A DNA stretch of 64,000 nt. It comes from an uncultured Methanosarcinales archaeon (GTDB taxonomy: Archaea > Nanobdellota > Nanobdellia > Woesearchaeales > CAYMBN01). Under the pieces are notes generated by a model that saw nothing but the letters and a program-made list of their open reading frames with translations, was not told the origin of the DNA and searched no databases. The first letter of the stretch is position 1. The number at the start of each line of letters is the position of its first letter. Location of the stretch: contig CAYMBN010000006.1 of the NCBI GenBank assembly GCA_964388715.1, positions 1 to 64,000 on the forward strand, read 5' to 3'. Both the position numbers and the translations under genes were made by a program. Of the stretch, positions 8,284 through 60,145 are shown piece by piece.

Positions 8284-10023
8284 ATGCGAAAACTAAAAAA
8301 AATATTTACAAGTGCAAGGGTTATTGTACTTTTGATTTTTTTAGTGTTAGCTATTGTTGTAATTCGTCCTAATCCGTGGAATAGTGGAGCTTCAATTAGG
8401 AATGTGGTTAAAGAGTCTGCAGCTTCTTTTGCTGAGATTAAAAATCCTGAAGCTGGTGCAAGTCCAATGAGTGCGGAAAGGATTATTGCTATAAATAATA
8501 AACCTGTTGAAAATGCTTATGATTATTATATGTTAACTAAAGATCTTCCAGTAAATAAAACACTGCTTATTAAGACAAATAAACAGCTTTATAGAGTTGT
8601 TACAAAATCATTGATTGATGTTACTGTTTTACCTGAACTTGTTGATAAAGAAGAGAGTTATATTGAATTAGTTAACAAAACATTTGTGAATGAAAGTACA
8701 AATGAAACTTATGTTGAAGAGGTTGAGGTTAATCAAACAAGAATTGTAAAGATTAATAAAACAATTGAAAATGTTATTGGTACTGAAGATGTTGGGTTAA
8801 GAGTTTATGATGCTCCTACAACTAATATAAGAAAAGGTCTTGATTTGCAAGGTGGTACAAGAGTTTTATTACAGCCTGAAAGAGAACTTACTAAAGATGA
8901 GATTGATACATTAATTGATAATCTTAAACAAAGGTTGAATGTTTATGGTTTAAGTGATATTGTTGTTAGGGAAGTTGGTGATTTAAGTGGTAATCAATAC
9001 ATTTTGATTGAGATTGCTGGTGCAAATGAGCAAGAGGTTAAAGAGTTAATTGCAAAACAAGGTAAGTTTGAAGCAAAGATTGCTAATAGTACTGTTTTTA
9101 GGGGTGGACAAGATATTACTTATGTATGTAGAAGTGCTGATTGTTCTGGTATTGATCCTAATTCTGGTTGCGGTGCTACAAATGATAATCAATGGGCTTG
9201 TAGATTTAGGTTTTCAATTAGTTTAACACCTGAGGCAGCTCAAAGACAAGCTAATCTTACACAAAATCTTAATGTGATAACAAAAAGTGGGAATGAATAT
9301 CTTGATCAAATGTTAATATTATATCTTGATGATAGTCAGGTTGATGAACTTAATATTGGTGCTGATTTAAAAGGACAAGCTGTTACTGATATTGCAATAT
9401 CTGGTTCTGGTGTTGGTGCTAATAGGCAGGAAGCAATCTTACAATCACTTGAAAATATGAAAAGGTTACAAACTATACTTATTACTGGTAGTTTGCCTGT
9501 AAAAACTAATATTGTGAAAACAGATTCTATCTCACCTGTACTTGGTAAAGAGTTTGTTAATAATGCATTACTTATTGGATTGTTTGCTGTGTTAGCAATT
9601 GGTATTGTTGTTTTTGTTAAATATAGAGTTATTAAAGTTGTTCTTCCAATGGTACTTGCTTCTGCCTCAGAAATTGTAATTTTGTTAGGTGTTGCTTCAT
9701 TGATTGGATGGAATCTTGACCTTGCTGCAATTGCAGGTATTATTATTGCAGTTGGTACTGGAGTAGACCATAAAATAGTTATTACAGATGAAACATTAAA
9801 AGGAGAAGGGGAAATATTTACAAACTGGAAAGAACAAATTAAAAAAGCGTTTTTTATAATTATTGCGGCATATTTTACAACTGTTGTAGCAATGTTACCA
9901 TTATTATTTGCAGGTGCTGGTATGTTAAGAGGGTTTGCACTTACAACAATTATAGGAATTTCAATTGGAGTATTTATATCAAGACCTGCGTATGCTAAAG
10001 CTATTGAGATTATACTTAAATAA
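8284..10023 (+). CDS. secD: protein translocase subunit SecD
   Basis: GLDLQGGTRVLL, RLNVYGLSD, GSLP, AVGTGVD, LRGFALTT. Confidence 0.95.
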   Translation: MRKLKKIFTSARVIVLLIFLVLAIVVIRPNPWNSGASIRNVVKESAASFAEIKNPEAGASPMSAERIIAINNKPVENAYDYYMLTKDLPVNKTLLIKTNKQLYRVVTKSLIDVTVLPELVDKEESYIELVNKTFVNESTNETYVEEVEVNQTRIVKINKTIENVIGTEDVGLRVYDAPTTNIRKGLDLQGGTRVLLQPERELTKDEIDTLIDNLKQRLNVYGLSDIVVREVGDLSGNQYILIEIAGANEQEVKELIAKQGKFEAKIANSTVFRGGQDITYVCRSADCSGIDPNSGCGATNDNQWACRFRFSISLTPEAAQRQANLTQNLNVITKSGNEYLDQMLILYLDDSQVDELNIGADLKGQAVTDIAISGSGVGANRQEAILQSLENMKRLQTILITGSLPVKTNIVKTDSISPVLGKEFVNNALLIGLFAVLAIGIVVFVKYRVIKVVLPMVLASASEIVILLGVASLIGWNLDLAAIAGIIIAVGTGVDHKIVITDETLKGEGEIFTNWKEQIKKAFFIIIAAYFTTVVAMLPLLFAGAGMLRGFALTTIIGISIGVFISRPAYAKAIEIILK

Positions 10024-15407: not shown

Positions 15408-16274
15408 ATGGGGAAATATTTATTCACAAACTCACTAGGTAGCTTTGTATTTGATGAAAAGCTTAAACTAGTTGATAAAGGAGAAGAGAAAAAGCTTAGT
15501 AAGAAGTATAAGGATGCTATTAAAACAGATGATCCAAAAATTGTAAATGGGATCTTGAGATTATTTAAAGAGCAAGCTAAGAAGTTTTATGAGCCTAATT
15601 TAAAGTTTACAAAGCAGAAAGTAAAGGATTCTGTTAATTCTGATAATTTGGTTGTGCAGACAATTGATAATATTGAAGAAATTGATAAAGCTGCTAATTT
15701 ATTGGTTAAAAGGTTAAGAGAATGGTATGAACTTTATAATCCAGAGTTTTCCAAAGGTATTGCATCACATGATAAATTTGTTGAATTGATTCTTGAAAAG
15801 GTGAGTAAGAAGAAGAATTCAATGGGTGCTGAGTTAAGTAAAGAGGATTTAAAGCCAATAATGTCTTTAGCTAAGAAGATTAATGAGTTGTATAAGTTTA
15901 GAGAAGAACAGAAAAAATATCTTGAAAAGATTATGAAAAATAATTATAAGAATCTTACAGCTGTTGCAGGTGTTTTGATTGGAGCAAAATTGTTAGCGCA
16001 TGCTGGTTCATTGAAAAAATTAGTGTTATTTCCTGCTTCAACAATACAATTGTTAGGAGCTGAAAAGGCATTGTTTAGGCATATTAAAACAAAAGCAAAA
16101 TGTCCTAAATATGGATTAATTGTAAATCATCCTATTGTCTCTCAAGCCAAGAAGAAAGGTAAAGCTGCAAGAGCTGTAGCTGATAAAATTAGTATGGCTG
16201 TTAAAATTGATTATTTTAAAGGGAAGTTTATTGGTGATAAACTAAGGAAAGGTTTGGAGAAAAGGTTTGGATGA
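15408..16274 (+). CDS. nop5: Nop5 (Nop56/58) box C/D sRNP core protein
   Basis: RLREWY...PE, PASTIQLLGAEKALFRH, PKYG, GKAAR. Confidence 0.93.
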   Translation: MGKYLFTNSLGSFVFDEKLKLVDKGEEKKLSKKYKDAIKTDDPKIVNGILRLFKEQAKKFYEPNLKFTKQKVKDSVNSDNLVVQTIDNIEEIDKAANLLVKRLREWYELYNPEFSKGIASHDKFVELILEKVSKKKNSMGAELSKEDLKPIMSLAKKINELYKFREEQKKYLEKIMKNNYKNLTAVAGVLIGAKLLAHAGSLKKLVLFPASTIQLLGAEKALFRHIKTKAKCPKYGLIVNHPIVSQAKKKGKAARAVADKISMAVKIDYFKGKFIGDKLRKGLEKRFG

Positions 16275-17758
16275 AAACTGAACAAATCATCAAAAAGTTT
16301 GCTCTTGATAAGACAACTTGGACATTTAAAGGATTTCATGGTCTTCCATTTACATTTTATTATATTGGTTATGGGTCATTGAAGTGGTGTAAAAAGTTTT
16401 ATGGTGATCAATGTAAAAAGTCTATGTTCTTTGCAAGTAAAGATTATATAAGATGGTATTGGCCTGATGAAGATATGAGACGATTGAGAAAGTTACTGAT
16501 TAAAAATGTAAATAAAGATGATAATTATTTAAAAAAGATGAGAACAGATTGGGCAAAAAAGCTCAGAGAATTTAATAAAGTTTTAGAAAAGATAAGTAAA
16601 ACAGACTTAAGTAAACTTAATGATAAAGAATTGCTAGAGTTATATGATGAGTTTCTTGTTAAATATATGGAAGAGTTTGGCATTGTTATGACTGTTCAAG
16701 ATGCTTTTTCAATGTATTCTTCTGAGTTTTTAGAGCCTGCCTTTGTAGAAGTTTTGGAAAAACAAGATAAATTAGACAAATTTACTTATTATTATACTAA
16801 ATTACTTTCACCTGTTGAAGATTCATTTATTTCAATTGAAAAGAAGTCAAGGCTAAATATTTTGAAGGAAGTTGAGAAGAATGGTTTTGACTCAGATAAA
16901 GTAAAAAATATACTTAAAGAACATCAAAAAAAGTTTTTTTGGGTTAGAAATAACTATGCAAAACAGCCTGTTTTGGATGTTAAGTTTTTTGTGGATGAAA
17001 TAAAGAATATGATTAAAGAAGGTGTTAAGGCTGAGAAAGAATTGAAAAAGATGGATGATGAAATTAAAGAGATTGTTGAGGAAAAAAAGAAGATAATAAA
17101 GGAGCTTAAGTTAAGTAAAGAGTTTGTTAATTTGATTAAAATAACTGAAAATTTTAGTTATATTCAAGATGAAAGGAAAAAGTATGTTCTTATTGCAAAC
17201 CATTATCAAAGATTGTTTATGAAAGAGATTTCCAAAAGAAAGAAATTGCCTATTAAGATGGTTGAATATCTTGTTTATCCTGAAATAAAGCAAAGAATGT
17301 TTGACAAACAAAAGTTGAAGAAAAGGTATGATTCTTGTGTATGTATACAGGATGATTCTGGTTTTTATGTTTATGAAGGAGAAGAAGTTGATAAATTACA
17401 TGATAAATTGTTTGGTTCTGATAAAGATAAGAATATTACTGAATTAAAAGGTTTATGTGCTTCAAAAGGTAAAGCAAGAGGTACTGTTAAGATTGTCCAG
17501 AAAACACATGATTTAGTTAATTTCAAAGAAGGAGATATTTTGCTTTCTTCCATGACAAGGCCTGAGATGGTTGTTGCTATGAAAAAAGCAGCTGCAATTG
17601 TAACTGATGAAGGTGGAATCACTTCACATGCTGCGATTGTTTCACGAGAGTTGGGTAAACCATGCATAATTGGTACAAAGAAAGCAACAAGTGTGTTTAA
17701 GGATGGTGATATTGTTGAAGTTGATGCTGATAAAGGAGTTGTAAAGAAAATAAAATGA
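16271..17758 (+). CDS. helical domain + C-terminal PEP-utilising mobile (phospho-His swivel) domain protein
   Basis: TDEGGITSHAAIVSRELGKPCIIGT...VEVDADKG; no ATP-grasp or TIM-barrel domain. Confidence 0.88.
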   Translation: MKTEQIIKKFALDKTTWTFKGFHGLPFTFYYIGYGSLKWCKKFYGDQCKKSMFFASKDYIRWYWPDEDMRRLRKLLIKNVNKDDNYLKKMRTDWAKKLREFNKVLEKISKTDLSKLNDKELLELYDEFLVKYMEEFGIVMTVQDAFSMYSSEFLEPAFVEVLEKQDKLDKFTYYYTKLLSPVEDSFISIEKKSRLNILKEVEKNGFDSDKVKNILKEHQKKFFWVRNNYAKQPVLDVKFFVDEIKNMIKEGVKAEKELKKMDDEIKEIVEEKKKIIKELKLSKEFVNLIKITENFSYIQDERKKYVLIANHYQRLFMKEISKRKKLPIKMVEYLVYPEIKQRMFDKQKLKKRYDSCVCIQDDSGFYVYEGEEVDKLHDKLFGSDKDKNITELKGLCASKGKARGTVKIVQKTHDLVNFKEGDILLSSMTRPEMVVAMKKAAAIVTDEGGITSHAAIVSRELGKPCIIGTKKATSVFKDGDIVEVDADKGVVKKIK

Positions 17759-19038
17759 AAGCTGAAGAAGTTAAGGAAAAAATTAGAGAATTAACATGGG
17801 AAAAATGGCTTCAGAGACACTTTGATCCGTTAGTAACTTCATTTTTTACAGAAGGATTTTATGAAAAATCATTTGAAAAAATAGGAATTCCTAATATGAA
17901 AGGTAAAGCGTCATTATTTCAGGAAAGTGTTTGGTATGAAAGTAAAGAAGTATGGGCTCATGCTGTTGAACTGTTAGAAGTTTATTTAAAGAACCATACA
18001 ATGTTGGATGTATCAAATTTACTTGAAAAATTTTATGAACAAAAAAAGAAACATATTCAATATCTTGTTAAACAAAACGGAAATCCTATTGAGAATTTAA
18101 AGGAGATTTATGAAATTTTAAAATCATGTACAACATTCATATGGGTAGCACATGCATTAGAACAAGTTTTCATGAGAAGGCTAAAACAGGAAGTTCCAAA
18201 ATATGTTAAGAAAGATGTTGATAAATTTATAGGAGATGCAAGTTTTCCAAAGAAAAAGAATGTAAACATGTTAATGGAAGAAGCAATGCGAAAAGGTGAA
18301 GATCCAGAAAAGATTGTTAAAGATTATGGGTGGGTAAAAGTTCGTTGCACTTTTGAAGAACCTTTTAGTGTTGATGATATTAAAAAGTTAATAAAGGAAT
18401 TAAAGCCAACTAAAACAGTAAAAAAAGTAGATATACCTAAAGAACTTCAACCTTTATTTAATGATGTACAAGAGCTAGTATATTTTCGTACTGCAAGAAC
18501 AGATATTTTTTATGAACTTTTGTTTTTATCACGACCGATCTTTAAAAGAGTAGCTGAATTTTACAAAATACCATTTTCTGAATTTCCTTATTACACTGTT
18601 CAAAGTTTAATTAATGGAAAACCTAAAAAGTTTGGGAAAAAATATTCGTTTGCACAATATGAAGATAATCATTATTTTGGGGAAGAACCTATTTTGGAGG
18701 ATGAAGTAGTTAAAGAAGTTGATTATGTAAAAGGAACTGTTGCATATAAAGGAATAATAAAAGGTATTGTAAAAATTGTTAGAATAGAAACAGAATTAGA
18801 TAAAGTAAAACAAGGAGATATCTTAGTGACACAAATGACTTTCCCTTCTTTTATCACTGCTATGCATAAGGCATCTGCATTTGTGACAGATGAAGGTGGA
18901 ATTACGTGTCACGCTGCAATTGTTTCACGGGAAATGCATAAACCATGCATAATTGGTACAAAAATTGGTACAAAGGTTTTTAAAGATGGGGATTTGGTTG
19001 AAGTTGATGCTGATAAAGGTATTGTGAGGAAATTATGA
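17755..19038 (+). CDS. helical domain + C-terminal PEP-utilising mobile (phospho-His swivel) domain protein
   Basis: TDEGGITCHAAIVSREMHKPCIIGT...VEVDADKG. Confidence 0.88.
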   Translation: MKAEEVKEKIRELTWEKWLQRHFDPLVTSFFTEGFYEKSFEKIGIPNMKGKASLFQESVWYESKEVWAHAVELLEVYLKNHTMLDVSNLLEKFYEQKKKHIQYLVKQNGNPIENLKEIYEILKSCTTFIWVAHALEQVFMRRLKQEVPKYVKKDVDKFIGDASFPKKKNVNMLMEEAMRKGEDPEKIVKDYGWVKVRCTFEEPFSVDDIKKLIKELKPTKTVKKVDIPKELQPLFNDVQELVYFRTARTDIFYELLFLSRPIFKRVAEFYKIPFSEFPYYTVQSLINGKPKKFGKKYSFAQYEDNHYFGEEPILEDEVVKEVDYVKGTVAYKGIIKGIVKIVRIETELDKVKQGDILVTQMTFPSFITAMHKASAFVTDEGGITCHAAIVSREMHKPCIIGTKIGTKVFKDGDLVEVDADKGIVRKL

Positions 19039-19694
19039 AACAAACAAAATTTCCAGGTATATTTGAAAAGAAAGGAAAACTTTACACTAGAAGTCTAATT
19101 AAGGGTAAGAAGGAATTTAGAGAAAAAATTGTTAGAGAAGGTAAGATTGAATATAAAGAATGGGATCCGAGGAGAAGTAAACTTGCTGCTGCTATTCTAA
19201 AAGGACTTAATCAAATAGGTATTAAAGAAGGACATGTTGTGCTTTATTTAGGTGCTTCACATGGTTATACACCTTCATATATTTCTGATATTATTGGTAA
19301 AGGAGGTTTTATGTTTGCACTTGATTTTGCACCAAGAGTTGTGCGAGATTTAGTATATGTTTGTGAGCAGAGAAAAAATATGACTCCTTTGTTATCAGAT
19401 GCAAATCAACCAATGAGTTATGCTGATAAAGTAACCCAGGTTGATGTGATCTATCAAGATATTGCGCAAAGAAATCAAGCAGGAATATTTTTGGATAATA
19501 TTGATTATTTTTTGAAACCAGAAGGATTTGGTATTCTTGCTGTTAAATCAAGAAGTATTGATATTGCTAAAAAGCCTTTTCAGGTTTATCAAGATGTTAA
19601 AAAAGAATTAGAGAAAAAGGTTACAATAGTTGATTTTAGAAAGCTTGATCCATTTGAAAAGGATCATTGTTTGTTTGTTGTGAAGAAGAAATAA
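19035..19694 (+). CDS. flpA: fibrillarin rRNA/tRNA 2'-O-methyltransferase
   Basis: WDPRRSKLAAAI, VLYLGA, YQDIAQ.NQ, KSRSID, LDPFEKDH. Confidence 0.95.
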   Translation: MKQTKFPGIFEKKGKLYTRSLIKGKKEFREKIVREGKIEYKEWDPRRSKLAAAILKGLNQIGIKEGHVVLYLGASHGYTPSYISDIIGKGGFMFALDFAPRVVRDLVYVCEQRKNMTPLLSDANQPMSYADKVTQVDVIYQDIAQRNQAGIFLDNIDYFLKPEGFGILAVKSRSIDIAKKPFQVYQDVKKELEKKVTIVDFRKLDPFEKDHCLFVVKKK

Positions 19695-19707
19695 AAAAAT
19701 TTATATA
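19694..19707 (+). promoter_or_regulatory. BRE/TATA promoter of the Cys leader-tRNA-Cys unit
   Basis: A-run then TTTATATA (19700-19707), about 24 nt before the ATG at 19731. Confidence 0.7.
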
Positions 19708-19730
19708 TTAGCATAAATTTCTAATTAGTT

Positions 19731-19760
19731 ATGAAACAAACAATAGATTGTTGTTGTTGA
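19731..19760 (+). CDS. putative cysteine-sensing leader peptide MKQTIDCCC
   Basis: ATG AAA CAA ACA ATA GAT TGT TGT TGT TGA, at leaderless spacing from the TATA and directly upstream of tRNA-Cys/cysK/cysS. Confidence 0.7.
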   Translation: MKQTIDCCC

Positions 19761-19789
19761 ATTCTTTCATTGTTTTAGTTTTAACTCTA

Positions 19790-19914
19790 GGGAGTGTTGC
19801 CAAGCGGCTAAATTTTCAAGGCTAGGTTTTCAAGGCTAGGGCGGTCGGCTGCAACCCGACTAATCAAGGGTTCGAGACGTTTATTCTAAAGACGCGAAAT
19901 TCCCTTCACTCCCT
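19790..19914 (+). tRNA. tRNA-Cys(GCA) with two non-canonical introns (19812-19839 in the D arm, 19877-19900 in the T loop)
   Basis: Acceptor GGGAGTG/CACTCCC + U73; anticodon arm GTCGG-CTGCAAC-CCGAC; T stem AAGGG/CCCTT; removing both BHB-bounded inserts restores a canonical cloverleaf. Confidence 0.92.
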
Positions 19915-19982
19915 TCTTAACAATGAAAGGTCAAAAAAGCAAAACTTAATAAATAATCTAAACTAAAATAGAGGTAATCAAA

Positions 19983-20903
19983 ATGCAAAAAGCGAGATTA
20001 TTACAATTGGTTGGAGGAACTCCTGTAGTTAAATTAACTAGAGTTAATAATACAAAAGCCAAAATATTTGCAAAACTTGATTCCATGAATCCAAGTGGTA
20101 GTATAAAAGATGTTATGGCATGGTACATGATGCAAAGGGCAGAAGAAAAAGGTCTTCTAAAACCTGGCCAGAGAATAATTGAAGTTACAACAGGAAATAC
20201 TGGAATAGCTTTCGCAATGTTATCTGCAATAATGGGATATAAATTTACAGCAGTTATGCCAGAACATATGTCAAAAGAAAGAATGCAAATGATGCGAGCT
20301 TTTGGTGCAGAATTGGTTTTAACATCTGAAAAAGAGGATGTTGCAGGTGCTATTAAAAAATATAATGAATTAGTTAAGAAAAATCCAAATGCATGGTTCC
20401 CAAGACAATTCCAAAACAAAGATAATGTAAGAGCACATATGGAAATAACAGGTAAAGAAATCCTTAATCAGATTTATGATAAGATTGACGCTTTTGTTGC
20501 AGGAGCAGGTACAGGTGGAACAATAATGGGTACTTCAAAAATATTAAGAAAAGCCTATCCAAATATAAAGATTGTTGCTGTTGAACCTGCTGAATCAGCT
20601 GTGTTGTCAGGGAAAGAGCCTGGACCGCATGGAATCCAAGGAATTGGTGAAGGTTTTATACCTGATCTTTTAGATCCAAAACAACTTGATGAAGTTATTG
20701 TAATCAAAACTGAAGATGCAAAGAAAATGGCTGCGCGTTTAGCAAAAGAAGAAGGGATATTATGTGGAATTAGTTCAGGTGCAAATGTGTTAGCATCATT
20801 ACAAATTGCAAAAAAACTTGGAAAAGATAAGGTTGTTGTTACTGTTATACCTGATAGAGGGGAAAGATATTTAAGTATGGATTTTTTAGGTGGTAAACAA
20901 TGA
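19983..20903 (+). CDS. cysK: cysteine synthase (O-acetylserine sulfhydrylase family, PLP)
   Basis: NPSGSIKD, TTGNTGIA, GAGTGGT, HGIQGIG.GF.P, GISSGAN, PDRGERYLS. Confidence 0.92.
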   Translation: MQKARLLQLVGGTPVVKLTRVNNTKAKIFAKLDSMNPSGSIKDVMAWYMMQRAEEKGLLKPGQRIIEVTTGNTGIAFAMLSAIMGYKFTAVMPEHMSKERMQMMRAFGAELVLTSEKEDVAGAIKKYNELVKKNPNAWFPRQFQNKDNVRAHMEITGKEILNQIYDKIDAFVAGAGTGGTIMGTSKILRKAYPNIKIVAVEPAESAVLSGKEPGPHGIQGIGEGFIPDLLDPKQLDEVIVIKTEDAKKMAARLAKEEGILCGISSGANVLASLQIAKKLGKDKVVVTVIPDRGERYLSMDFLGGKQ

Positions 20904-22303
20904 CACTAAAATTATACAATACTTTTACTAGAAAAAAGCAAGAGTTTAAACCGATTAAAAAAGGAGTTGTTCATATGTATACCTGTGGTCCTACTGTCTA
21001 TGATTATGCACATATTGGAAATTTTAGAGCTTATGTTAATTATGATATCCTAAGAAGATATCTTAAATTTAAAGGGTTTAAAGTAAAACAGGTCATGAAT
21101 ATCACAGATATAGATGATAAAACAATAAAAAAATCACAAGAAGAAGGAAAATCAATAAAAAAATTTACAGAATTCTATGAAAAAGAATTTTTAAAAGATC
21201 TAAAAGCACTTAATATAGAAATGCCTGAAATTATGCCACATGCTTCAGATCACATTAAGGAAATGGTTGAATTAATTCAAAAATTAAGCAGAAAAGGTTA
21301 CACATACGAAGCAAATGGTTCAATTTATTTTAAAATTTCAAAATTTAAAGATTATGGAAAACTAGCAAAGCTTGATATGGAAAGTCTCAAAGAAAATGCA
21401 GATGGTAGACTTGCTGATGCTGATGAATATGAAAAAGAAGATGCACGTGATTTTGTATTATGGAAAGGATATAACAAATCAGATGGAGGTGTTTTTTGGA
21501 ATCCAATAATTGGAAAAGGTAGACCTGGTTGGCATATTGAATGTTCTGTAATGTCAATGAAATATCTGGGGAAAACATTTGATATTCATACTGGTGGTAT
21601 TGATTTAATATTTCCACATCATACAAATGAGATTGCGCAATCAGAAAGTGCCACTGATGAGAAGTTTGTTAATTATTGGATACACAATGAACATTTACTT
21701 GTTAACAACAAAAAAATGAGTAAATCACTGGAAAATTATTTCACTTTAAGAGATTTGTTAAAGAAAGGGTATAAACCAATTGCTATTCGTTATCTTTTAC
21801 TTTCAGCGCATTATAGGCAAAAACTTAATTTTACATTAAAAGGTATTGAAGCAGCTGAAAAAACAGTACAAAAGTTCTATGATTTTATTGATAAGTTAAA
21901 AGAATATAAGGATGGAACAGATAATTCAAAAATTAACAACATTCTAGAAAAAACAAAATCATCTTTTGAACAAGCAATGGATGATGACTTAAACACATCA
22001 AAAGCACTAGGAATAATCTTTGACATGATGAGTGAGATTAATAAATTATTGATGAAAAAAGATATGAATAAGAAAAATGCAGAAAAAGTATTGAAGGTTA
22101 TGAAAGAGTTTGATCTTGTTCTTGGTGTTATGGAACATAAGGAAGAGAAGACTCCTAAAAAAGTTATTGATCTTATTGAGAAAAGGGAGGAAGCTCGTGA
22201 AAAAAAGGATTTTAAGATTGCTGATAAGATTCGTGAAGAGATAGGTAAGTTGGGTTATATTATTGAGGATACTAAAGAAGGAGTAAAGTGTAAGAAAAAA
22301 TGA
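20900..22303 (+). CDS. cysS: cysteinyl-tRNA synthetase
   Basis: CGPTVYD..HIGN, GRPGWHIEC, DLIFPHH.NE, KMSKS. Confidence 0.97.
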   Translation: MTLKLYNTFTRKKQEFKPIKKGVVHMYTCGPTVYDYAHIGNFRAYVNYDILRRYLKFKGFKVKQVMNITDIDDKTIKKSQEEGKSIKKFTEFYEKEFLKDLKALNIEMPEIMPHASDHIKEMVELIQKLSRKGYTYEANGSIYFKISKFKDYGKLAKLDMESLKENADGRLADADEYEKEDARDFVLWKGYNKSDGGVFWNPIIGKGRPGWHIECSVMSMKYLGKTFDIHTGGIDLIFPHHTNEIAQSESATDEKFVNYWIHNEHLLVNNKKMSKSLENYFTLRDLLKKGYKPIAIRYLLLSAHYRQKLNFTLKGIEAAEKTVQKFYDFIDKLKEYKDGTDNSKINNILEKTKSSFEQAMDDDLNTSKALGIIFDMMSEINKLLMKKDMNKKNAEKVLKVMKEFDLVLGVMEHKEEKTPKKVIDLIEKREEAREKKDFKIADKIREEIGKLGYIIEDTKEGVKCKKK

Positions 22304-22734
22304 TATTTATTGGAAGTGATCATGCTGGGTTTGAGGAAAAGGAAAGAATAAAAAAGTTTCTTATTGATAATGGTTATGAAGTAGAGGATTGTGGGCCATT
22401 AGAATATGATAAAGAAGATGATTATCCTGACTTTGCATTAAAAGTTGCTGAGAAAGTTAGTGAGAGTGGTGAGAAAGGTATTTTGGTTTGTGGAACAGGA
22501 CAAGGTGTTTGTATTGCTGCAAATAAAGTTCCTGAAATAGTTGCAGCTTTGTGTTGGGATAAAGAGTCTGCGGTACATGCAAAGCAGCATCTTAATGCTA
22601 ATATTATTACTTTTTCTGCTAAGATTGGTTGTGGAGAGGAGATTGTTAAAGCTTGGTTAGATGAGAAGTTTAAAGAGCATGAAGAAAGGCATACAAGAAG
22701 ATTGAGTAAGATTAAAGAGATTGAGAAAAGATAA
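22300..22734 (+). CDS. rpiB: ribose-5-phosphate isomerase B family
   Basis: GSDHAG, DYPD, CGTGQG..IAANK, RH.RR. Confidence 0.93.
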   Translation: MIFIGSDHAGFEEKERIKKFLIDNGYEVEDCGPLEYDKEDDYPDFALKVAEKVSESGEKGILVCGTGQGVCIAANKVPEIVAALCWDKESAVHAKQHLNANIITFSAKIGCGEEIVKAWLDEKFKEHEERHTRRLSKIKEIEKR

Positions 22735-23343
22735 TTATTCTGAAAGTTTTGGTAAGTAATTTAGTTTTTTTCTAATGAAATCAAACAAATAAAGTTTTAT
22801 AGTTTCATTTTTTTCAGTTTCTCTATTAGAGTTTCCTCGAATTGTTTCAGATTCAACTGAAAGGATTGTTTCAAAAAATAATCTTAAATACTCATCACGA
22901 TAGGAATAAATAGTATCAACAATATCTAATTTTTCTTTTTCTGTAAGGAGAATACCTGGAATATAATCAATATCAAAGTGGATTTCTTCTTCAGAATAAT
23001 TGTATGGAGGTAAAAAATGAAGATTTGAAAGAATTTCCTTCTTCTGATTAGGAGTAGGATTATAAGAAAGAATGAATCTTTTTATTTCTTTTTCATTAAA
23101 GTCATAAACAACAATAAAATTAAAATCTAATTCATCAGCTCTAAATGAACTTTGATTATAATAAGAAAATTCAACTGCAGGATATTGTTTACCATCAACT
23201 GTTACATTTCTTTCACTACTAGACATTATATCTTCAAGGCAAATTTTTCTTATTGATTTAATATTAATAGCATGAACTACATCACCCAGTAAAGAAGAAG
23301 ATAATACACCAGCCGCGAGAAGTAAACATAAACTTTTACGCAT
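22735..23343 (-). CDS. hypothetical secreted protein
   Basis: N-terminal signal-peptide-like MRKSLCLLLAAGVL...VHA. Confidence 0.6.
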   Translation of the reverse strand: MRKSLCLLLAAGVLSSSLLGDVVHAINIKSIRKICLEDIMSSSERNVTVDGKQYPAVEFSYYNQSSFRADELDFNFIVVYDFNEKEIKRFILSYNPTPNQKKEILSNLHFLPPYNYSEEEIHFDIDYIPGILLTEKEKLDIVDTIYSYRDEYLRLFFETILSVESETIRGNSNRETEKNETIKLYLFDFIRKKLNYLPKLSE

Positions 23344-23354: not shown

Positions 23355-25808
23355 TTAGATCTCAATCCCTATTTGTACTAAATCAATAGAACAAGGTATG
23401 TCTACTTTATCGCCAAATTTGATTTCTTTTGCATGTGTTGTTGCTTTAAGGTCTTCTAGTGCTTGTTCAATTAATTCTTTATCTTTTTTACCACATTTAA
23501 TTGTTAAGCATTTTATTTCTTGTTTTAGTGACATCTTTTTCTCTGATTTGTACTTTCTTACTGTTGAAATTACCTCAGCTATTAAATCACCTGCTTTTTC
23601 AATGTTTTCATTAATGAATTTTTCGTTGAATTTTGGCCATTGTGAAATATGAATTGATTTATGAGCATCTTTTTCATTGAAATAAAGATGATAAATTGAT
23701 TCTGTGATGTGTGGCATGATTGGAGCAAAGAGTTTTAAAACATCTAAAACTGCTGTGTACAAAACATATTGTGCACTTTTACGTGCTTCTTTGCCACGTT
23801 TGTCTGGATTATAAAGACGGTCTTTGATTATTTCTAAATATAAGTCACATAAAGTGTGCCAGAAAAAGTTTTCTGTTTCTGACCTTGTTTTTGCATATTC
23901 ATATTTGTTAAACGTGTTTGTACTTGCCTTGATTATATTATGAAGTTTGCACAGTAACCATTGATCTACTAATTCTAATTTTTTTGGTTCTTTATTGTCA
24001 AAATCTTCAAGGTGCATAATTGCAAATTTGCTTGCATTCCAGAGTTTTGTGATTGTTTTTTGTGCTGTAACAAGATCTTTTTCTTGATAAGGTAAATCAT
24101 CACCTAATTTTGAACCAGCTGCCCAAAATCTTAAACAGTCTGCACCATATTTTTCAATAACTTCCTGTGGTTCAACAACATTACCAAGTGATTTTGACAT
24201 TTTTTTACCATGTGGATCTTGTGCATGGCCACTGATAACAACATCTTTCCATGGTTTTGCTTTATAATGTAAGTGTGATTTAACAACTGTGTTGAAAAGC
24301 CAAAATGTGATAATGTCATGTGCTTGAGGTCTTAGTGACATTGGATAAAGTTTTTTGAAAATTTTGTGATCTTTAAATAATTCAACAGCTAATCTTGGTG
24401 TTAGTGAGGAAGTTGCCCAGGTATCAAGTACATCTTTTTCAGGAACAAATTCTTTACATTTACATTTTGGACATTCTTTAACAGGAGGGTTATCTTTTAA
24501 TGGATCAACAGGTAGATCTTGTTTTTTTGCTAGAATAACTTCATCACATTTTTTACAGTACCATACTGGAAATGGTATCCCAAAAAATCTTTGCCTTGAA
24601 ATTAACCAATCCCATTGAAGACCTTTTACCCAATGATCATAACGTGATTTCATATGTTCAGGATACCAGTTAAGTTCTTTTCCCCACTTTAACATTTCAT
24701 CTTTAAGATCAAGGTATTTGATAAACCATTGTTTTGAATGTAAGAATTCTATCTCGGTTTTACAACGTTCGTGAACATTAACAGCGTGTTTAATTGGTTC
24801 TTGGCTTAGTAAAAGTCTATTATCTTTAAGATCTTCAATAATCATCTTACGTGCTGTTGCTATTGACATTCCTTTGAACTTTCCTGCTAATTCTGTCATT
24901 TTTCCATCATGTGTAATTGCTGTTTTAATAGGTAAATTATGTGCTTTTTGCCATTCCATGTCTGTTTGATCACCAAAAGTACAACACATTACAATACCAG
25001 TCCCTTTTTCAGGATCAGCACGTTCATCAGGCATGATAGGTACTTCATAATCAAACAAAGGAACTTTTGCTTTTTTTCCTTTTAATTTTTGGTAACGTTT
25101 ATCCTCAGGATGGTAAAATACTGCAACACATGCAGGCAATAATTCTGGACGTGTTGTTGCAATTATGAGATCTTGTTCTTTTTTATCTGTTTTTACTTTG
25201 AATATAATGTCATTAAAAAAAGAGTCAAGTTCTTTATCTTCACATTCAACTTGTGAAATACCTGTTTGACATTCAGGACACCACATACATGGTGCTTCTT
25301 TTCTATATTCACGGCCTATTTCATAGAGTTCAATAAATGATCTTTGTGATATTGCTTGACAATGTGGATTTATTGTATCATAAAAAATACTCCATTCACA
25401 ACTCATACCAATACGTTTCCAATCTGCTATATATTTTGGTCTTAATTCCTTATCAAGTGTTTCAAGACATAGTTTAACAAATTCTTGTCTATCCATGTCA
25501 TGTGCTTTAACACCTTTCATTTGTTCAATTAAACGTTCTGTTGCTACACCATTGTTGTCGGTACCAAAAGGATAGAAAATGTTTTTGCCAAGCATTCTTT
25601 GAAATCTAACAATGAAATCTTGTTGAGCATATGAAAATGCGTGACCTATGTGCATCTTACCACTTACAGTTGGGGGTGGTGTGTCAATTGAGTAAATTTC
25701 AGCATCTGAATCTGGGTCAAATTTGAATATTTCTTTATCTTCCCAATATTTTTCCCATTTAAGTTCTTCTTCTTTGAAATTATAATGTTTTGGTAGTTCT
25801 TTTCCCAT
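23355..25808 (-). CDS. valS: valyl-tRNA synthetase, archaeal type
   Basis: DTPPPTVSG.MHIGH, DWLISRQR.FG, DTWATSS, RPQAHDII, KMSKS. Confidence 0.96.
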   Translation of the reverse strand: MGKELPKHYNFKEEELKWEKYWEDKEIFKFDPDSDAEIYSIDTPPPTVSGKMHIGHAFSYAQQDFIVRFQRMLGKNIFYPFGTDNNGVATERLIEQMKGVKAHDMDRQEFVKLCLETLDKELRPKYIADWKRIGMSCEWSIFYDTINPHCQAISQRSFIELYEIGREYRKEAPCMWCPECQTGISQVECEDKELDSFFNDIIFKVKTDKKEQDLIIATTRPELLPACVAVFYHPEDKRYQKLKGKKAKVPLFDYEVPIMPDERADPEKGTGIVMCCTFGDQTDMEWQKAHNLPIKTAITHDGKMTELAGKFKGMSIATARKMIIEDLKDNRLLLSQEPIKHAVNVHERCKTEIEFLHSKQWFIKYLDLKDEMLKWGKELNWYPEHMKSRYDHWVKGLQWDWLISRQRFFGIPFPVWYCKKCDEVILAKKQDLPVDPLKDNPPVKECPKCKCKEFVPEKDVLDTWATSSLTPRLAVELFKDHKIFKKLYPMSLRPQAHDIITFWLFNTVVKSHLHYKAKPWKDVVISGHAQDPHGKKMSKSLGNVVEPQEVIEKYGADCLRFWAAGSKLGDDLPYQEKDLVTAQKTITKLWNASKFAIMHLEDFDNKEPKKLELVDQWLLCKLHNIIKASTNTFNKYEYAKTRSETENFFWHTLCDLYLEIIKDRLYNPDKRGKEARKSAQYVLYTAVLDVLKLFAPIMPHITESIYHLYFNEKDAHKSIHISQWPKFNEKFINENIEKAGDLIAEVISTVRKYKSEKKMSLKQEIKCLTIKCGKKDKELIEQALEDLKATTHAKEIKFGDKVDIPCSIDLVQIGIEI

Positions 25809-29603: not shown

Positions 29604-30548
29604 TTATTTCTTAAAAGTTGTTACTGGTCGTGATTGTGTGAGGTATATTTTTCTTCCTTCAACAGCCCATTCTATGTCTTGTGGAAATTTATAGTGTTTT
29701 TCTACTTTTTTACCAAGTTCTGCTAATTCTGTTATTTCATGGTCAGTTAAAACTTGTTTTTCTGGATCAGGGATGTTTTTTCTTGTGTTTTCTCCTGTTT
29801 CTTCATCTCTGAAAAGGCCCCATTCTTGTTCATTAACTGTTTTTTCTTTTATGTTAAGAGAATGTTTGTTAACAATGTATAAGTCTGGGTTGATGCTTCC
29901 TGAGACTACTGATTCACCTAATCCAAATGCTCCTTCAATTATGATTTCATCTTCACTGTTTGTAACTGGGTTAACAGAAAATAGAACTCCTGCTTTGTCT
30001 GAATTAACCATTTTTTGTATAACAACTGCAATGAAAACTTCTTCGTGTTTAAAGTTGTTTTTTTCTCTGTAATAGATTGCACGAGCAGTAAATAATGATG
30101 CCCAACATTTTTGAGTAGCTTCAACAACGTTTTTTGCACCTTTTACATTAAGGAATGTTGCTTGTTGTCCTGCAAAACTTGCATCTGGTAAGTCTTCTGC
30201 TGTTGCAGATGAACGTACTGCTACAAAAGTGTCAATCAAATCGTAGTTTGTGATTGTATCTTGTTTAATCTCTTCTGGCATTTCTGCGCTTGTGATAATA
30301 TGTTGAATTTCATTAGAAGCTTTTTGCAGTGCTTCAGTATCTTCAACATCAAGATCAGCTAATTTGTCAAATATTTTTTTTTGTATTCCTGTTCTTTCTA
30401 AGAAAAGTTTGTAAGCGTCTGCTGTAACAACAAAACCTTCTGGAATTGGAAAGTCTGCGTTGAATAGTTCACCAAGGTTAGCTCCTTTTCCACCTACAAT
30501 TGGAATATCTTTCTTGCTTAAATCTTTAAACCACATTATATTTTGCAT
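29604..30548 (-). CDS. stand-alone PEP synthase/PPDK N-terminal ATP-grasp domain protein
   Basis: VGGKGANLGEL, AVRSSATAEDLPDASFAGQ, GLGESVVSG, DIEWA, QSRPVT then stop; lacks the His and PEP/pyruvate domains. Confidence 0.92.
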   Translation of the reverse strand: MQNIMWFKDLSKKDIPIVGGKGANLGELFNADFPIPEGFVVTADAYKLFLERTGIQKKIFDKLADLDVEDTEALQKASNEIQHIITSAEMPEEIKQDTITNYDLIDTFVAVRSSATAEDLPDASFAGQQATFLNVKGAKNVVEATQKCWASLFTARAIYYREKNNFKHEEVFIAVVIQKMVNSDKAGVLFSVNPVTNSEDEIIIEGAFGLGESVVSGSINPDLYIVNKHSLNIKEKTVNEQEWGLFRDEETGENTRKNIPDPEKQVLTDHEITELAELGKKVEKHYKFPQDIEWAVEGRKIYLTQSRPVTTFKK

Positions 30549-30583
30549 GATTATCACCTTTATATCTTATTTGGGATTTGTTT

Positions 30584-33989: not shown

Positions 33990-34181
33990 TTAGATTGCTA
34001 GTTTAAAACCACTAGGACTAACAAAATGATTATGGCCTGTTCTTAGGAAAAGTGTTTTTTCCTTGTATTCTTTTGTGATTGGATCTTTATATCTATGTTT
34101 TGCTGAAAAGTTTATTCCTTTAACTAATTCAATTGCTTGTTTAATTTCAATTTCCACAAATGAATCAAGTGTTTTTTTCAT
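33990..34181 (-). CDS. small hypothetical protein
   Basis: 63-aa ORF heading the small-gene run; TATA-like element about 27 nt upstream. Confidence 0.55.
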   Translation of the reverse strand: MKKTLDSFVEIEIKQAIELVKGINFSAKHRYKDPITKEYKEKTLFLRTGHNHFVSPSGFKLAI

Positions 34182-47016: not shown

Positions 47017-47062
47017 ATAAGTAGAAAGTTTTATAAATTAAATTAAAAGTAATATTGTTTAT

Positions 47063-47166
47063 GGGAACATAGCTCAGACTGGGAGAGCACTACGCTGAAG
47101 ACGTAGGTGTCCTGGGAAGTTAATTGGAATACAATTAACTCAGGAATTCAAATCCCAGTGTTCCCA
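47063..47166 (+). tRNA. tRNA-Phe(GAA) with a 30-nt intron at position 53/54 (47117-47146)
   Basis: GGGAACA/TGTTCCC acceptor, GCTC/GAGC D stem, CTACG-CTGAAGA-CGTAG, CTGGG/CCCAG T stem; TATA at 47030-47037. Confidence 0.95.
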
Positions 47167-60043: not shown

Positions 60044-60145
60044 ATGAAAAAATCAAAAAGAAAATTAAAACCATTGTTCAGGCTAAAGAGAAAAGCTTGC
60101 CTGAAAGCACTTTTTCTAGATCAAAATCTTTTGAATAATAATTGA
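60044..60145 (+). CDS. putative asparagine-sensing leader peptide (33 aa, ends NLLNNN)
   Basis: MKKSKRKLKPLFRLKRKACLKALFLDQNLLNNN-TGA; TTTAAATA at 60013-60020 about 24 nt upstream; precedes asnS. Confidence 0.55.
   Translation: MKKSKRKLKPLFRLKRKACLKALFLDQNLLNNN

Follow-up and report, generated by a model that had tools for sequence, protein, structure and literature searches.

A short polycysteine reading frame before tRNA-Cys, cysK and cysS as a candidate leaderless, ribosome-mediated sensor of cysteine supply in a Woesearchaeota-type archaeon

How could an archaeal cell match the expression of the genes that provide charged tRNA-Cys to the supply of that same molecule, and might the translating ribosome itself take the measurement? 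This question is raised by a locus in a 64,000-nucleotide stretch of archaeal DNA (hereafter the window, meaning the whole stretch analysed), in which a reading frame of nine codons, the last three of them for cysteine, is found between a TATA box and the genes for tRNA-Cys, cysteine synthase and cysteine--tRNA ligase (CysRS). Ribosome-mediated attenuation is a textbook bacterial mechanism, and we found no description of it in Archaea in the full-text literature, a body of work whose coverage leaves out most subscription journals. Based on the geometry of the promoter, the gene content and the comparison with related loci, we consider that the frame is probably a leaderless leader ORF acting in cis, through which the ribosome would sense the supply of Cys-tRNA(Cys).

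Promoter, reading frame and downstream genes

The elements of the locus, together with the tRNA-Phe gene used for comparison, are the following:

19700..19707, + strand: TATA box TTTATATA, preceded by an A-run and directly 3' of the fibrillarin stop codon (19692-19694)
19731..19760, + strand: short ORF MKQTIDCCC-stop, predicted to be leaderless; nine codons (ATG at 19731-19733) and TGA (19758-19760)
19749..19757, + strand: three consecutive TGT (Cys) codons directly before the stop, the proposed sensing site
19761..19789, + strand: T-rich spacer from the ORF stop to tRNA-Cys; 17 of 29 bases are T, with T4 at 19773-19776 and 19779-19782
19764..19774, + strand: 5' arm of a perfect 11-bp long-range helix, starting 4 nt past the stop codon
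19790..19914, + strand: tRNA-Cys (GCA) gene with non-canonical insertions in the D-loop and the T-loop, discriminator T and no encoded CCA
19919..19929, + strand: 3' arm of the leader/trailer helix, 4 nt past the tRNA discriminator base
19983..20903, + strand: cysK (cysteine synthase A; TIGR01139, 393 bits, cut-off 351), with an AGAGGT Shine-Dalgarno upstream
20900..22303, + strand: cysS (cysteine--tRNA ligase; TIGR00435, 504 bits), its start overlapping the cysK stop
22300..22734, + strand: rpiB-like gene overlapping the cysS stop, followed by a T7 run at 22765-22771
47063..47166: tRNA-Phe, with a TATA box at 47030-47037 whose start lies 33 nt before the first tRNA base

The order of TATA box, ATG, MKQTID, three TGT codons, TGA, T-rich tract, tRNA-Cys, cysK and CysRS had been described in an earlier note made from the letters alone, and every one of its statements on the sequence was confirmed. 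The ATG at 19731 lies 24 nt past the end of the TATA box and 31 nt from its start, and no Shine-Dalgarno is present 5' of it. Since this 31-nt spacing coincides with the leaderless mode of the genome (30-33 nt between TATA start and first ATG in 14 of 18 pairs, for window ORFs of at least 100 aa), the ORF is predicted to be leaderless, with a transcription start at 19731 as judged from the TATA spacing, and it is presumably translated. Cysteine is a rare residue in the window, as the note had supposed (1.03% of the 20041 codons of the window genes), and makes up three of the nine codons of the ORF; its common codon is TGT (173 TGT vs 33 TGC in the window genes).

The tRNA-Cys gene escapes the standard tools when these are applied to the raw sequence, with ARAGORN calling no tRNA genes in the window and Rfam only tRNA-Phe. 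Its identity comes from two lines of evidence. Taken exon by exon, the segment 19790-19914, which is intron-bearing, can be aligned with tRNA-Cys from two related loci, L008 (Rfam tRNA, 41.5 bits; GCA anticodon read by eye) and L015 (ARAGORN tRNA-Cys GCA; Rfam tRNA, 49.1 bits). Moreover, when the D-loop and T-loop insertions were deleted in silico, ARAGORN returned tRNA-Cys(GCA) in 6374 of 60480 deletion combinations and, in the same set, no other named tRNA type, besides three calls of undetermined type. A cloverleaf with the GCA anticodon and the U73 discriminator expected for tRNA-Cys is recovered only through insertion removal in silico and the alignment with the relatives.

The distance between promoter and tRNA sets this gene apart from tRNA-Phe, as had been pointed out before: the TATA box of tRNA-Phe is close, whereas 83 nt separate the end of the TATA box at 19700-19707 from tRNA-Cys, and the TATA patterns used match nowhere else between 19707 and the tRNA. 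No T-run follows tRNA-Cys, in contrast to tRNA-Phe, which has a T6 immediately after it (47167-47172), and computation shows no terminator between tRNA-Cys and cysK. The AGAGGT Shine-Dalgarno marks cysK as an internal or leadered cistron. Given the missing T-run, this Shine-Dalgarno and the cysK/cysS and cysS/rpiB overlaps, co-transcription of tRNA-Cys, cysK, cysS and rpiB is plausible, the rpiB-like gene being probably the last of the unit, and the leader ORF, on the same strand, would belong to one operon with tRNA-Cys, cysK and cysS. A weak TATA-like element, TTAATAAA at 19946-19953, could serve as an independent start for cysK. As a separate matter, a C/D-box sRNA next to the fibrillarin gene was considered and dropped, because an Rfam E-value scan of 19650-20000 gave only matches taken as noise (snoR64, lysM-Prevotella, mir-703 and mir-198; E 2.8-8.5).

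Counterparts in related loci and expectation by chance

Relatives were gathered by one genome scan with CysRS as the query, from which 80 loci were kept; no CysRS relative above 60% identity was returned. With labels, G+C and synteny all judged, 72 of the 80 (mostly bacterial-labelled; 1031468 bases) were used as negative background only, and the archaeal set, window included, comprises 170225 bases. Three Woesearchaeota-like loci of this set, with CysRS 56-57% identical to that of the window or more distant, carry a counterpart of the ORF:

L004, 6540-6569: MQKIICCCC-stop, nine codons, four Cys before the TGA stop, TGC among the Cys codons
L008, 4633-4674: MIRQDYYRCDCCC-stop, 13 codons, ending CDCCC-stop (TAG), TGC among the Cys codons
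L015, 7001-7078: ORF of 25 codons ending SCFCCC-stop (TAA), with three (+1) Cys

The TATA start-to-ATG distances are here 29, 31 and 30 nt, inside the ranges of the respective genomes. All that is kept across the four ORFs is the Cys run and the stop that follows it: the N-termini are unrelated, the lengths are 9, 9, 13 and 25 codons, and three different stop codons are used (TGA, TGA, TAG and TAA). Both longer ORFs have a further Cys one codon ahead of the run (CDCCC in L008, CFCCC in L015), so that a single non-Cys codon interrupts the repeat (TGTGATTGTTGTTGC in L008, TGTTTCTGTTGTTGT in L015). The search for conserved Cys-run frames showing TGT/TGC exchange, which the earlier note had proposed, was thus positive in the three loci, with TGC present in L004 and L008. 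The four instances are so few, and at 56-57% CysRS identity or beyond so divergent, that fine-scale substitution tests are impossible.

The neighbourhood of the ORFs is also shared. Corresponding to the tRNA-Cys, cysK and cysS of the window, the L004 frame is followed by cysE (TIGR01172, 211.3 bits, cut-off 210.65) and then cysS, and that of L015 by cysK/M and then cysS. In L008, a tRNA-Cys lies 350 nt downstream and cysS further on; as this tRNA stands at such a distance and behind a TATA box of its own, its link in cis with the ORF is uncertain. Elsewhere in the archaeal set, no Cys-run ORF lies near cysS in L001 and L003, where tRNA-Cys, cysK and cysE are absent as well; L011 has tRNA-Cys directly before cysS, yet no Cys-run ORF; and in L036 (tRNA-Cys-cysE-cysS) the upstream region holds only a decayed remnant, RCYC-stop, devoid of an ATG. 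The presence of equivalent frames before cysteine genes suggests, as far as sequence comparison can tell, that these archaea sense cysteine supply with the translating ribosome, as mycobacteria do.

The argument that three tandem Cys codons before a Cys operon are unlikely by chance proved weak at the DNA level and strong for the complete configuration. The 9-mer TGTTGTTGT, that is (TGT)3, occurs three times in the window vs 1.78 expected, and 30 of 100 shuffles reach three. ORFs of up to 45 codons with an ATG start and three Cys codons directly before the stop number four in the archaeal set, compared with 0.32 on average in second-order Markov simulations, which in 300 runs never reach four; if the TATA box is also required, the simulated mean falls to 0.003 per archaeal set. 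No CCC(C)-stop ORF occurs in the 1031468 bases of the other 72 loci. The significance of the Cys-run ORF comes, then, from its context and its conservation.

A related observation concerns asparagine, for which the earlier note had pointed to a matching frame before asnS:

60044..60145, + strand: second short ORF, likewise predicted leaderless, 33 codons ending NLLNNN-TGA, with the TATA start 32 nt upstream

This ORF, 142 nt before asnS (60288-61580), is real and statistically unusual. Among the 24 TATA-positioned short ORFs (4-45 codons) of the archaeal set, five have homo-tripeptide tails (four CCC and one NNN), compared with 0.15 per archaeal set in the simulations. A search of 1.84 billion protein representatives at E up to 0.001 gave no relative of its peptide, and its leader fold gives a z of 0.32. 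The NNN ORF is possibly a sister element of the Cys ORF. For the tentative lineage-wide system that the note had suggested, this ORF of the window is the single example outside cysteine.

RNA structure, output and alternative explanations

What the ribosome would act upon is less evident than the frame itself, and no output mechanism common to all four loci was found. The overlapping pairings I1, I2 and I3 of the window leader are weak, and only I2, the 11-bp helix that encloses the tRNA, exceeds chance: of 2000 shuffles, 17 contain a complement of equal or greater length, as do 2 of 2000 segments of 68 nt drawn at random from the genomic sequence, and the helix is present in both the MFE and the centroid folds of 19731-19945. 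Its 5' arm would be within reach of a ribosome standing on the last codons. The helix is specific to the window among the four loci. In L008, a segment 16-32 nt past the stop has long-range complements around a strongly folded region, a stretch that resembles no part of the window or of any other locus, and in L015 no inverted repeat of at least 9 nt was found in the leader. A bulge-helix-bulge between the 11-bp helix and the acceptor stem, through which the splicing endonuclease could excise the tRNA from the mRNA, was looked for by eye and is unsupported, no 4-bp central helix being present.

Transcription attenuation, the output that the earlier note had favoured, found no support in the leader sequences. 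The five Cys-leader folds are no better than their shuffles (z -0.48, 0.10, -0.13, -0.24 and +1.44), no hairpin terminator was found in the leader, with no G+C-rich stem ahead of the T-runs, and the Cys leaders show no mutually exclusive terminator/antiterminator hairpins with a U-run of the trp/his type. T-runs follow three of the four Cys ORFs and the Asn ORF, L015 being devoid of a run of four or more T; they were given no weight as terminators, because by a rough estimate a genome of 30% GC will often have a T4 inside a stretch of 30 nt. The Cys tract also pairs no better than chance with the downstream ribosome-binding region, since 113, 335 and 282 of 500 shuffles (window, L004 and L015, respectively) are at least as good. 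Apart from the tRNA-Phe match, neither a T-box nor any other Rfam family was found at the gathering threshold in the window, and within 19650-20000 no match with E up to 10 supports a T-box.

The conservation between the window and L004 does not stop at the reading frame, and it is here that the most serious competitor of the leader-ORF reading arises. The spacer begins with ten bases, ATTCTTTCAT, that also follow the stop of L004, the identity running for 13 bases, and 22 of 23 bases are common over the Cys run, the stop and the 13 bases beyond, which are not explained by a pure leader-peptide model. Peptide sensing has no need of nucleotide conservation, and the T/G-rich stretch, ATTCTTTCAT and the helix could together form a conserved RNA or DNA signal in a pre-tRNA or operon leader, with the reading frame incidental and a role in processing, in termination of the upstream fibrillarin operon or in regulator binding. 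The enclosure of the tRNA by the helix and the long-range complements of L008 agree with such a signal, as does the fact that (TGT)3 is not rare as DNA. However, the bases after the stop are conserved in neither L008 nor L015, the helix is confined to the window, and the breaks of the repeat either keep Cys (through TGC) or insert exactly one codon (TGTGATTGTTGTTGC, TGTTTCTGTTGTTGT), by which the simple repeat is lost and the frame is retained. Four of four runs are in frame with an ATG at the leaderless TATA distance and directly followed by a stop, where 0.003 would be expected, and we therefore regard a signal of this kind as unlikely.

The product of the frame could instead matter as a functional micropeptide, encoded with the cysteine genes and using its C-terminal Cys cluster in, for example, metal or sulfur handling; CCC(C) at the C-terminus is indeed the sole conserved peptide feature, and its association with sulfur amino-acid genes is conserved as well. 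Nevertheless, peptides of 9 to 25 residues in which nothing can be aligned outside the Cys run, the parallel NNN ORF before asnS (which fits codon sensing and not cysteine chemistry, and whose peptide is itself without relatives), and the tested mycobacterial counterparts, which act via codon translation and not through the peptide (10.1101/834739), make this explanation decidedly improbable. Least credible of all is coincidence, in which an ATG at the transcription start, a low-complexity TGT repeat and a stop would have met with no function. The unexceptional count of the 9-mer is in its favour, and an ATG also falls at the start of tRNA-Phe (47061), so that an ATG at a predicted transcription start can be accidental. 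It is already disfavoured by the simulations, and four independent cases beside cysteine genes, at 56-57% CysRS identity, with none in 1.03 Mb elsewhere, leave it very little room.

Under the leader-ORF reading, which we prefer, the TATA box at 19700 would set the transcription start at or beside A19731, and the ribosome would bind the 5'-terminal AUG and translate the nine codons. The level of charged tRNA-Cys would determine how long it dwells on the three UGU codons, and hence on some 40 nt at the 5' end of the RNA; this occupancy would decide the fate of the co-transcribed RNA downstream, which encodes all that restores the charged tRNA, namely tRNA-Cys, CysRS and cysteine synthase. If the response runs as in the tested mycobacterial system, slow decoding when cysteine is short would lead to more downstream expression, and fast decoding followed by release at the stop to less. 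Pauses of the ribosomal A-site at Cys codons are reported in a ribosome profiling study of Haloferax (PMC7261190). Three outputs can be conceived. The one we rank highest has the ribosome on the last codons or the stop covering the helix arm 19764-19774, which would otherwise pair with 19919-19929 around the tRNA, so that processing or stability of the tRNA-cysK RNA would change. Ranked after it is a ribosome parked behind the RNA polymerase that would shield the U-rich RNA at 19773-19782 from oligo-U or FttA-dependent termination, on the model of TnaC stalling, which shields a Rho site. Last comes protection of the 5' end from decay by the stalled ribosome.

Relation to known systems and meaning for the archaeal lineage

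The frame shares with the trp, his, thr, leu and pheST attenuators a short leader ORF with a run of codons of the downstream pathway, and pheST illustrates that an aminoacyl-tRNA synthetase operon can be controlled in this way. In classical bacterial attenuators, terminator and antiterminator hairpins exclude each other and end in a U-run, and the ORF is preceded by a Shine-Dalgarno, whereas the archaeal ORF is leaderless by prediction and no significant fold was obtained for its leader; termination in archaea does not depend on a hairpin. The second of the outputs above resembles tnaC of the E. coli tna operon, where a ribosome that halts as it finishes the leader ORF sits over the RNA past the stop and excludes a termination factor. 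The tnaC stall is, unlike the one proposed here, brought about at the stop codon by free tryptophan, through the nascent peptide, and not by missing charged tRNA, and the factor in place of Rho would be FttA/aCPSF1, or termination would be of the oligo-U type. The T-box elements of Firmicutes cysS and cysE likewise distinguish charged from uncharged tRNA-Cys and control CysRS and cysteine synthesis genes in cis, but do so as a structured RNA that binds the tRNA directly, independently of translation. According to PMC13681488, oligo-U and FttA/aCPSF1 termination both act in archaea, the factor route probably requiring uncoupling from translation.

The direct bacterial precedent, which does not appear in the earlier note, is provided by the mycobacterial polycysteine leaderless sORFs, whose 3' Cys tract regulates cysteine operons by ribosome stalling (Canestrari et al., 10.1101/834739). 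Like Ms5788A and the other members of the "Cys ribulon", the ORF described here is (by prediction) leaderless, is the first cistron of its predicted transcript and stands upstream of cysteine-metabolism genes; the consecutive Cys codons, of which the class has two or more and its strong cases three or more, are at its 3' end (eight in Ms5788A, three in the window); several loci per lineage carry independently shaped versions; and sensing goes, here as a proposal, through the dwell of the ribosome on Cys codons (10.1101/834739). The differences are that the present hosts are DPANN-type archaea with TATA/TFB promoters, that the regulated set adds the tRNA-Cys gene and CysRS to the biosynthesis genes, and that the pairing of Cys tract and Shine-Dalgarno that defines Ms5788A was not found here. 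The authors leave open the mechanism at other mycobacterial loci and, in the same text, know of no cysteine attenuator of the classical type (10.1101/834739). For Actinobacteria, comparative predictions of leader-peptide control of amino-acid genes beyond the model bacteria, cysteine elements included, are reported by Seliverstov et al. 2005 (PMC1262725) and, unlike our case, concern bacteria. The archaeal and mycobacterial ORFs are without sequence relationship, and their origin is therefore presumably independent; by analogy, the MKQTIDCCC ORF is best read as an archaeal counterpart of the mycobacterial sORFs.

The core idea of the earlier note, a translated leaderless leader ORF whose Cys run is tied to cysteine genes, is thus supported by the promoter spacing and by the relatives. 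Its extension is more tentative, and we would put it at somewhat less than an even chance: a family of leaderless ORFs in Woesearchaeota-type DPANN archaea, ending in a run of codons for one amino acid just ahead of the stop (CCC before tRNA-Cys, cysK, cysE and cysS; NNN before asnS), might read the supply of aminoacyl-tRNA and adjust to it how strongly the corresponding genes for tRNA, synthetase and biosynthesis are expressed. Such a family could work with no hairpin terminators, a parked ribosome blocking a post-stop helix or shielding U-rich RNA from oligo-U/FttA termination.

If true, Archaea would have here their first leader-peptide attenuation system, which would also be the first of its kind to target directly the gene of the tRNA that decodes its own sensor codons. 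It would offer a concrete, testable archaeal case of coupling between translation and the fate of the RNA, and would mean that the leaderless "ribulon" logic of mycobacteria arose independently where leaderless mRNAs dominate. More elements could be sought with a simple annotation rule, namely an ATG some 31 nt past a TATA box, opening a frame that closes with a homo-codon run and, immediately after it, the stop. For genome-reduced DPANN cells, which have few transcription factors, it would provide a means to balance charged tRNA-Cys with some 30 bases of DNA.

The cysteine leader and its promoter

The Cys leader lies downstream of a fibrillarin gene (19035-19694; Pfam, 254.6 bits), in a genome with a G+C content of 30.4%, and heads the following features:

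19700-19707, + strand: consensus TATA box TTTATATA, preceded by an A-run and 3' of fibrillarin
19731 (ATG) to 19758-19760 (TGA), + strand: leader ORF MKQTIDCCC, with three TGT codons at 19749-19757 (sequence reading)
29 nt between ORF stop and tRNA-Cys, + strand: spacer, 59% T
19790-19914, + strand: tRNA-Cys gene (from alignment and in silico deletion), acceptor stem 19790-19796 paired with 19907-19913
68 nt between tRNA-Cys and cysK, + strand: A-rich stretch with an AGAGGT Shine-Dalgarno
19983-20903, + strand: cysK (profile match)
20900-22303, + strand: cysS (profile match), start overlapping the cysK stop
22300-22734, + strand: rpiB-like gene, start overlapping the cysS stop
22765-22771, + strand: T7 run, 3' of the rpiB-like gene

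Among 18 pairs of a TATA match and the first ATG of a window ORF at least 100 aa long, 14 have the ATG 30-33 nt past the TATA start; in the remaining four the spacing is 41-49 nt and a Shine-Dalgarno is present. Most mRNAs of this genome are thus predicted to be leaderless. The first base of tRNA-Phe is found 33 nt past its own TATA start. Since the leader ATG lies 31 nt from its TATA start, without a Shine-Dalgarno, it sits where transcripts and leaderless ORFs of this organism are predicted to begin. The tRNA-Cys gene is 90 nt from the same TATA start, with no second TATA match in between. A T6 run (47167-47172) directly follows tRNA-Phe and no T-run at all directly follows tRNA-Cys, which would fit read-through into cysK. 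The earlier note had cautioned that cysK may have its own TATA-like element; TTAATAAA is indeed present at 19946-19953, 37 nt before the cysK ATG, but a start there would fall 3' of the Shine-Dalgarno, making it a poor, although possible, promoter candidate.

Elsewhere in the window, two small ORFs (35877-36056, + strand, 59 aa; 33990-34181, - strand, 63 aa) lie at exactly the leaderless distance from a TATA and match no Pfam family; they probably encode small proteins that annotation missed. Between a Nop5-like gene (15408-16274) and fibrillarin there are two ORFs (16271-17758 and 17755-19038), the sole Pfam match in each being a C-terminal PEP-utilising mobile domain, and more PPDK/PEP-utiliser pieces are found at 29604-33571 (- strand). 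At L003, one of the loci fetched with the window CysRS, a Nop5-sized ORF adjoins fibrillarin.

Relatives with and without the leader

No protein in the species-level genome collection is more than 60% identical to the window CysRS, whose best matches include Woesearchaeota MAGs (L001, L004 and L008) and MAGs titled Methanosarcinales (L003, L015 and L036). The window's 288-nt intergenic region was compared by blastn with the 80 fetched loci, and follow-up scans covered Cys-codon runs in all loci and TATA-positioned short ORFs in the archaeal ones. The blastn match in L004 (22 of 23 bases) extends from the Cys run through the stop into the sequence behind it. The search for Cys-run uORFs in relatives, which the earlier note had proposed, was productive in three loci, with both TGT and TGC in use:

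L004, 6540-6569: ORF MQKIICCCC, TATA-ATG 29 nt, codons TGT TGT TGT TGC, stop TGA
L008, 4633-4674: ORF MIRQDYYRCDCCC, TATA-ATG 31 nt, final Cys codon TGC, stop TAG
L015, 7001-7078: ORF of 25 codons ending SCFCCC, TATA-ATG 30 nt, stop TAA

In L004, the ORF is followed after 85 nt by a serine O-acetyltransferase gene (cysE; TIGR01172, 211.3 bits, cut-off 210.65), with cysS two genes on; in L008, by an intron-bearing tRNA-Cys after 350 nt, with cysS 3 kb on. The L015 ORF lies between tRNA-Cys and cysK/M, 28 nt upstream of the cysK/M ATG, and cysS comes next. All that the four loci share is an ORF with leaderless geometry that ends in a Cys run with a stop immediately after it. The ORFs differ in length, in their N-terminal residues and in which stop and Cys codons they use, and the two longer ones have an additional Cys one codon before the run. 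As read from the sequences, this is the conservation pattern expected for a sensor ORF, and not the one expected for a peptide with a function of its own or for a simple repeat.

The leader is not universal, even within this archaeal group. Upstream of tRNA-Cys-cysE-cysS in L036 there is just a remnant RCYC-stop without ATG; cysS directly follows fibrillarin in L003 and comes after a divergent gene in L001, and neither locus has a Cys-run ORF, tRNA-Cys, cysK or cysE near cysS. L011 (a Hydrothermarchaeales MAG), with tRNA-Cys immediately before cysS, has no Cys-run ORF. What the ORF accompanies is therefore tRNA-Cys, cysK or cysE, and not cysS as such.

The earlier note had argued from the rarity of Cys (1.03% of the 20041 window codons), which is insufficient alone, given that (TGT)3 is unremarkable as bare DNA (3 observed against 1.78 expected; at least 3 in 30 of 100 shuffles). 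The case rests on conservation. In the archaeal set (window, L001, L003, L004, L007, L008, L011, L015 and L036; 170225 bases), we counted short ORFs (ATG start, up to 45 codons) whose last three codons are Cys, followed by a stop: there are four, against a mean of 0.32 in second-order Markov simulations (four reached in 0 of 300), and the simulated mean falls to 0.003 per set when a TATA is required. No such short ORF occurs in the other 72 loci (1031468 bases). The bare (TGY)3 plus in-frame stop is found nine times in the archaeal set, the other five without an ATG-started short ORF.

The tRNA-Cys gene escapes ARAGORN (no tRNA genes in the whole window) and Rfam (only tRNA-Phe, 47063-47166, with 37 nt in place of the model's 7-nt T-loop) because its D-loop and its T-loop each contain an insertion. 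It matches the relatives' tRNA-Cys genes in an exon-by-exon alignment: the L015 gene is called tRNA-Cys (GCA) by ARAGORN and also matches the Rfam tRNA model, the L008 gene matches that model (GCA anticodon read by eye), and the L036 gene has an insertion at the window's T-loop insertion position, besides others. When one stretch per loop (D and T) was deleted in silico, in 60480 combinations, ARAGORN called a tRNA in 6377, of which 6374 were tRNA-Cys (GCA) and three of undetermined type. The discriminator base is T, which serves as the identity element for CysRS. The D-loop insertion holds a 14-nt tandem duplication (about 19813-19840), and both window tRNA genes carry their insertions outside the anticodon loop. 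Since standard finders miss such genes, the tRNA sets of these genomes are likely under-annotated. In L011, tRNA-Cys (7907-7978) lies 23 nt upstream of cysS, and in L023 (a Patescibacteria MAG) it lies just downstream (9501-9576), near two opposite-strand cysK-like genes; the tRNA-Cys/cysS linkage is therefore wider than the leader ORF.

L003, L015 and L036, titled "uncultured Methanosarcinales", share the window's cysS...valS order (valS region 23355-25808), with ValRS identities to the window's of 60% (L003) and 70% (L015) and low G+C in both (32% in L003). Leaderless TATA spacing like the window's is seen in L003, L008 and L015. Based on the gene order and the L015 ValRS identity, we treat the three as relatives in the same DPANN-like group; they look like DPANN-type genomes, their titles probably being bin-level mislabels. 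The bacterial MAGs L002 and L005 (Zixibacteria and Ignavibacteria titles) have CysRS 58% and CysK 49-50% identical to the window's, as near as those of archaeal relatives or nearer (L015 CysK, 42%), which hints at exchange of the cysteine genes (19983-22303) between DPANN archaea and bacteria. In L008, a G+C-rich stretch between ORF and tRNA-Cys (4780-4990, + strand) folds at -73.2 kcal/mol (z -4.9; matched by none of 200 shuffles), with no Rfam family and no similar sequence in the window or the other 79 loci; positions 4690-4706, 16-32 nt past the ORF stop, are complementary to stretches flanking it on both sides. It may be a novel structured RNA, possibly part of the locus leader.

A second short ORF before asnS

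The NNN-TGA uORF noted earlier before asnS was borne out: it has 33 codons (60044-60145), ends NLLNNN-TGA, has a TATA start 32 nt upstream and is separated by 142 nt from asnS (NCBIfam asparagine--tRNA ligase, 497.8 bits). Homo-tripeptide tails occur in five of the 24 TATA-positioned short ORFs of the archaeal set (four CCC, one NNN), against 0.15 per set in simulations, where an NNN tail arose in 0 of 200. The case is weaker here. With 13 copies in the window against 5.8 expected, AATAATAAT is more frequent than (TGT)3; asnS is preceded by a TATA and a Shine-Dalgarno of its own; the ORF is followed by T5 and T6 runs; upstream lies the gene of an Lrp/AsnC-family regulator, divergently oriented (59490-59936, - strand); and the evidence covers a single locus. 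A search of 1.84 billion representatives at E up to 0.001 gave no relatives of the peptide. Between the ORF and the asnS TATA, 60146-60260 (+ strand) folds at -26.5 kcal/mol (z -3.68; 0 of 200 shuffles) into two hairpins inside a stem whose 3' arm overlaps that TATA, with alternative pairings too; given the divergent regulator, its palindromes could be Lrp/AsnC DNA sites and not RNA structure. For the lineage-wide system proposed in the earlier note, the element is thus real and suggestive at most.

Possible outputs of the proposed sensor and comparison with known systems

On sequence grounds, the sensor half is established by comparison, while the output half is what we infer. The relatives uphold the Cys-codon sensor ORF in the attenuator originally proposed; the classical form does not fit. 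A hairpin attenuator was rejected, since five Cys-leader folds are no better than shuffles (z -0.48 to +1.44) and no G+C-rich stem precedes the T-runs. An output like that of Ms5788A, a mycobacterial polycysteine leaderless sORF, was likewise rejected: pairing of the Cys tract with the next gene's ribosome-binding region was at least as good in 113, 335 and 282 of 500 shuffles.

A perfect 11-bp helix (19764-19774 with 19919-19929) encloses the entire tRNA-Cys, its 5' arm beginning 4 nt past the ORF stop and its 3' arm 4 nt past the tRNA discriminator. It is present in both the MFE and centroid folds of 19731-19945. Among 2000 shuffles of leader and trailer, 17 gave an equal complement, as did 2 of 2000 random genomic windows. 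Two weaker alternative pairings, both within chance, use bases of this 5' arm: one is with 19727-19744 (5' part of the ORF), the other with 19960-19968, immediately upstream of the cysK Shine-Dalgarno. Archaeal ribosome footprints are reported as about 27 nt (PMC7261190); by our own estimate of the footprint edges, the front of a ribosome whose A site holds the last Cys codon or the stop would be at about 19766-19770, over the start of the 5' arm. How long the ribosome stays there could then decide whether tRNA-Cys is locked between leader and trailer, which might in turn alter tRNA end processing or the stability of the tRNA-cysK RNA. Alternatively, following tna/Rho logic, a ribosome held up behind the polymerase, with the latter at 19773-19782, could shield the RNA from termination, which in archaea is described as occurring at oligo(dT) tracts and via FttA, a factor with a preference for U-rich RNA whose action probably depends on uncoupling from translation (PMC13681488); or the ribosome might protect this very short leaderless ORF from decay at its 5' end. 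None of these three routes is common to all loci: the L015 leader has no T-run of at least 4 and no detectable inverted repeat, and the window and L004 agree in all 10 bases past the stop, whereas L008 and L015 do not share them. We therefore commit only to a ribosome-occupancy sensor acting in cis, a reading that we hold to be probable; within it, helix blocking would be the likeliest output for the window, roughly as probable as the remaining two routes combined.

The closest system described so far is that of mycobacteria, where the first cistron ahead of cysteine operons is reported to be leaderless, to carry a Cys run (eight at the Ms5788A 3' end) and, in experiments, to relieve attenuation upon ribosome stalling; the authors state that uORF-mediated attenuation for cysteine was previously undescribed (10.1101/834739). 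The archaeal architecture is the same and the logic presumably so, but the tested mycobacterial output is not common to the archaeal elements, which add a tRNA gene and a synthetase as targets. Full-text searches, in a collection that lacks most subscription journals, gave no archaeal case, so its absence from the literature is unproven; ribosome profiling papers on Haloferax (PMC7261190) and Methanosarcina mention uORFs and, in the portions available, no cognate-codon attenuators.

Judged from the sequences compared, the Cys leader is real and conserved, and very probably functional. It would represent a known type of control in a new variant, in a domain, the Archaea, without earlier description of such control, and its circuit logic is that the quantity sensed, charged tRNA-Cys, depends on exactly the three downstream products.
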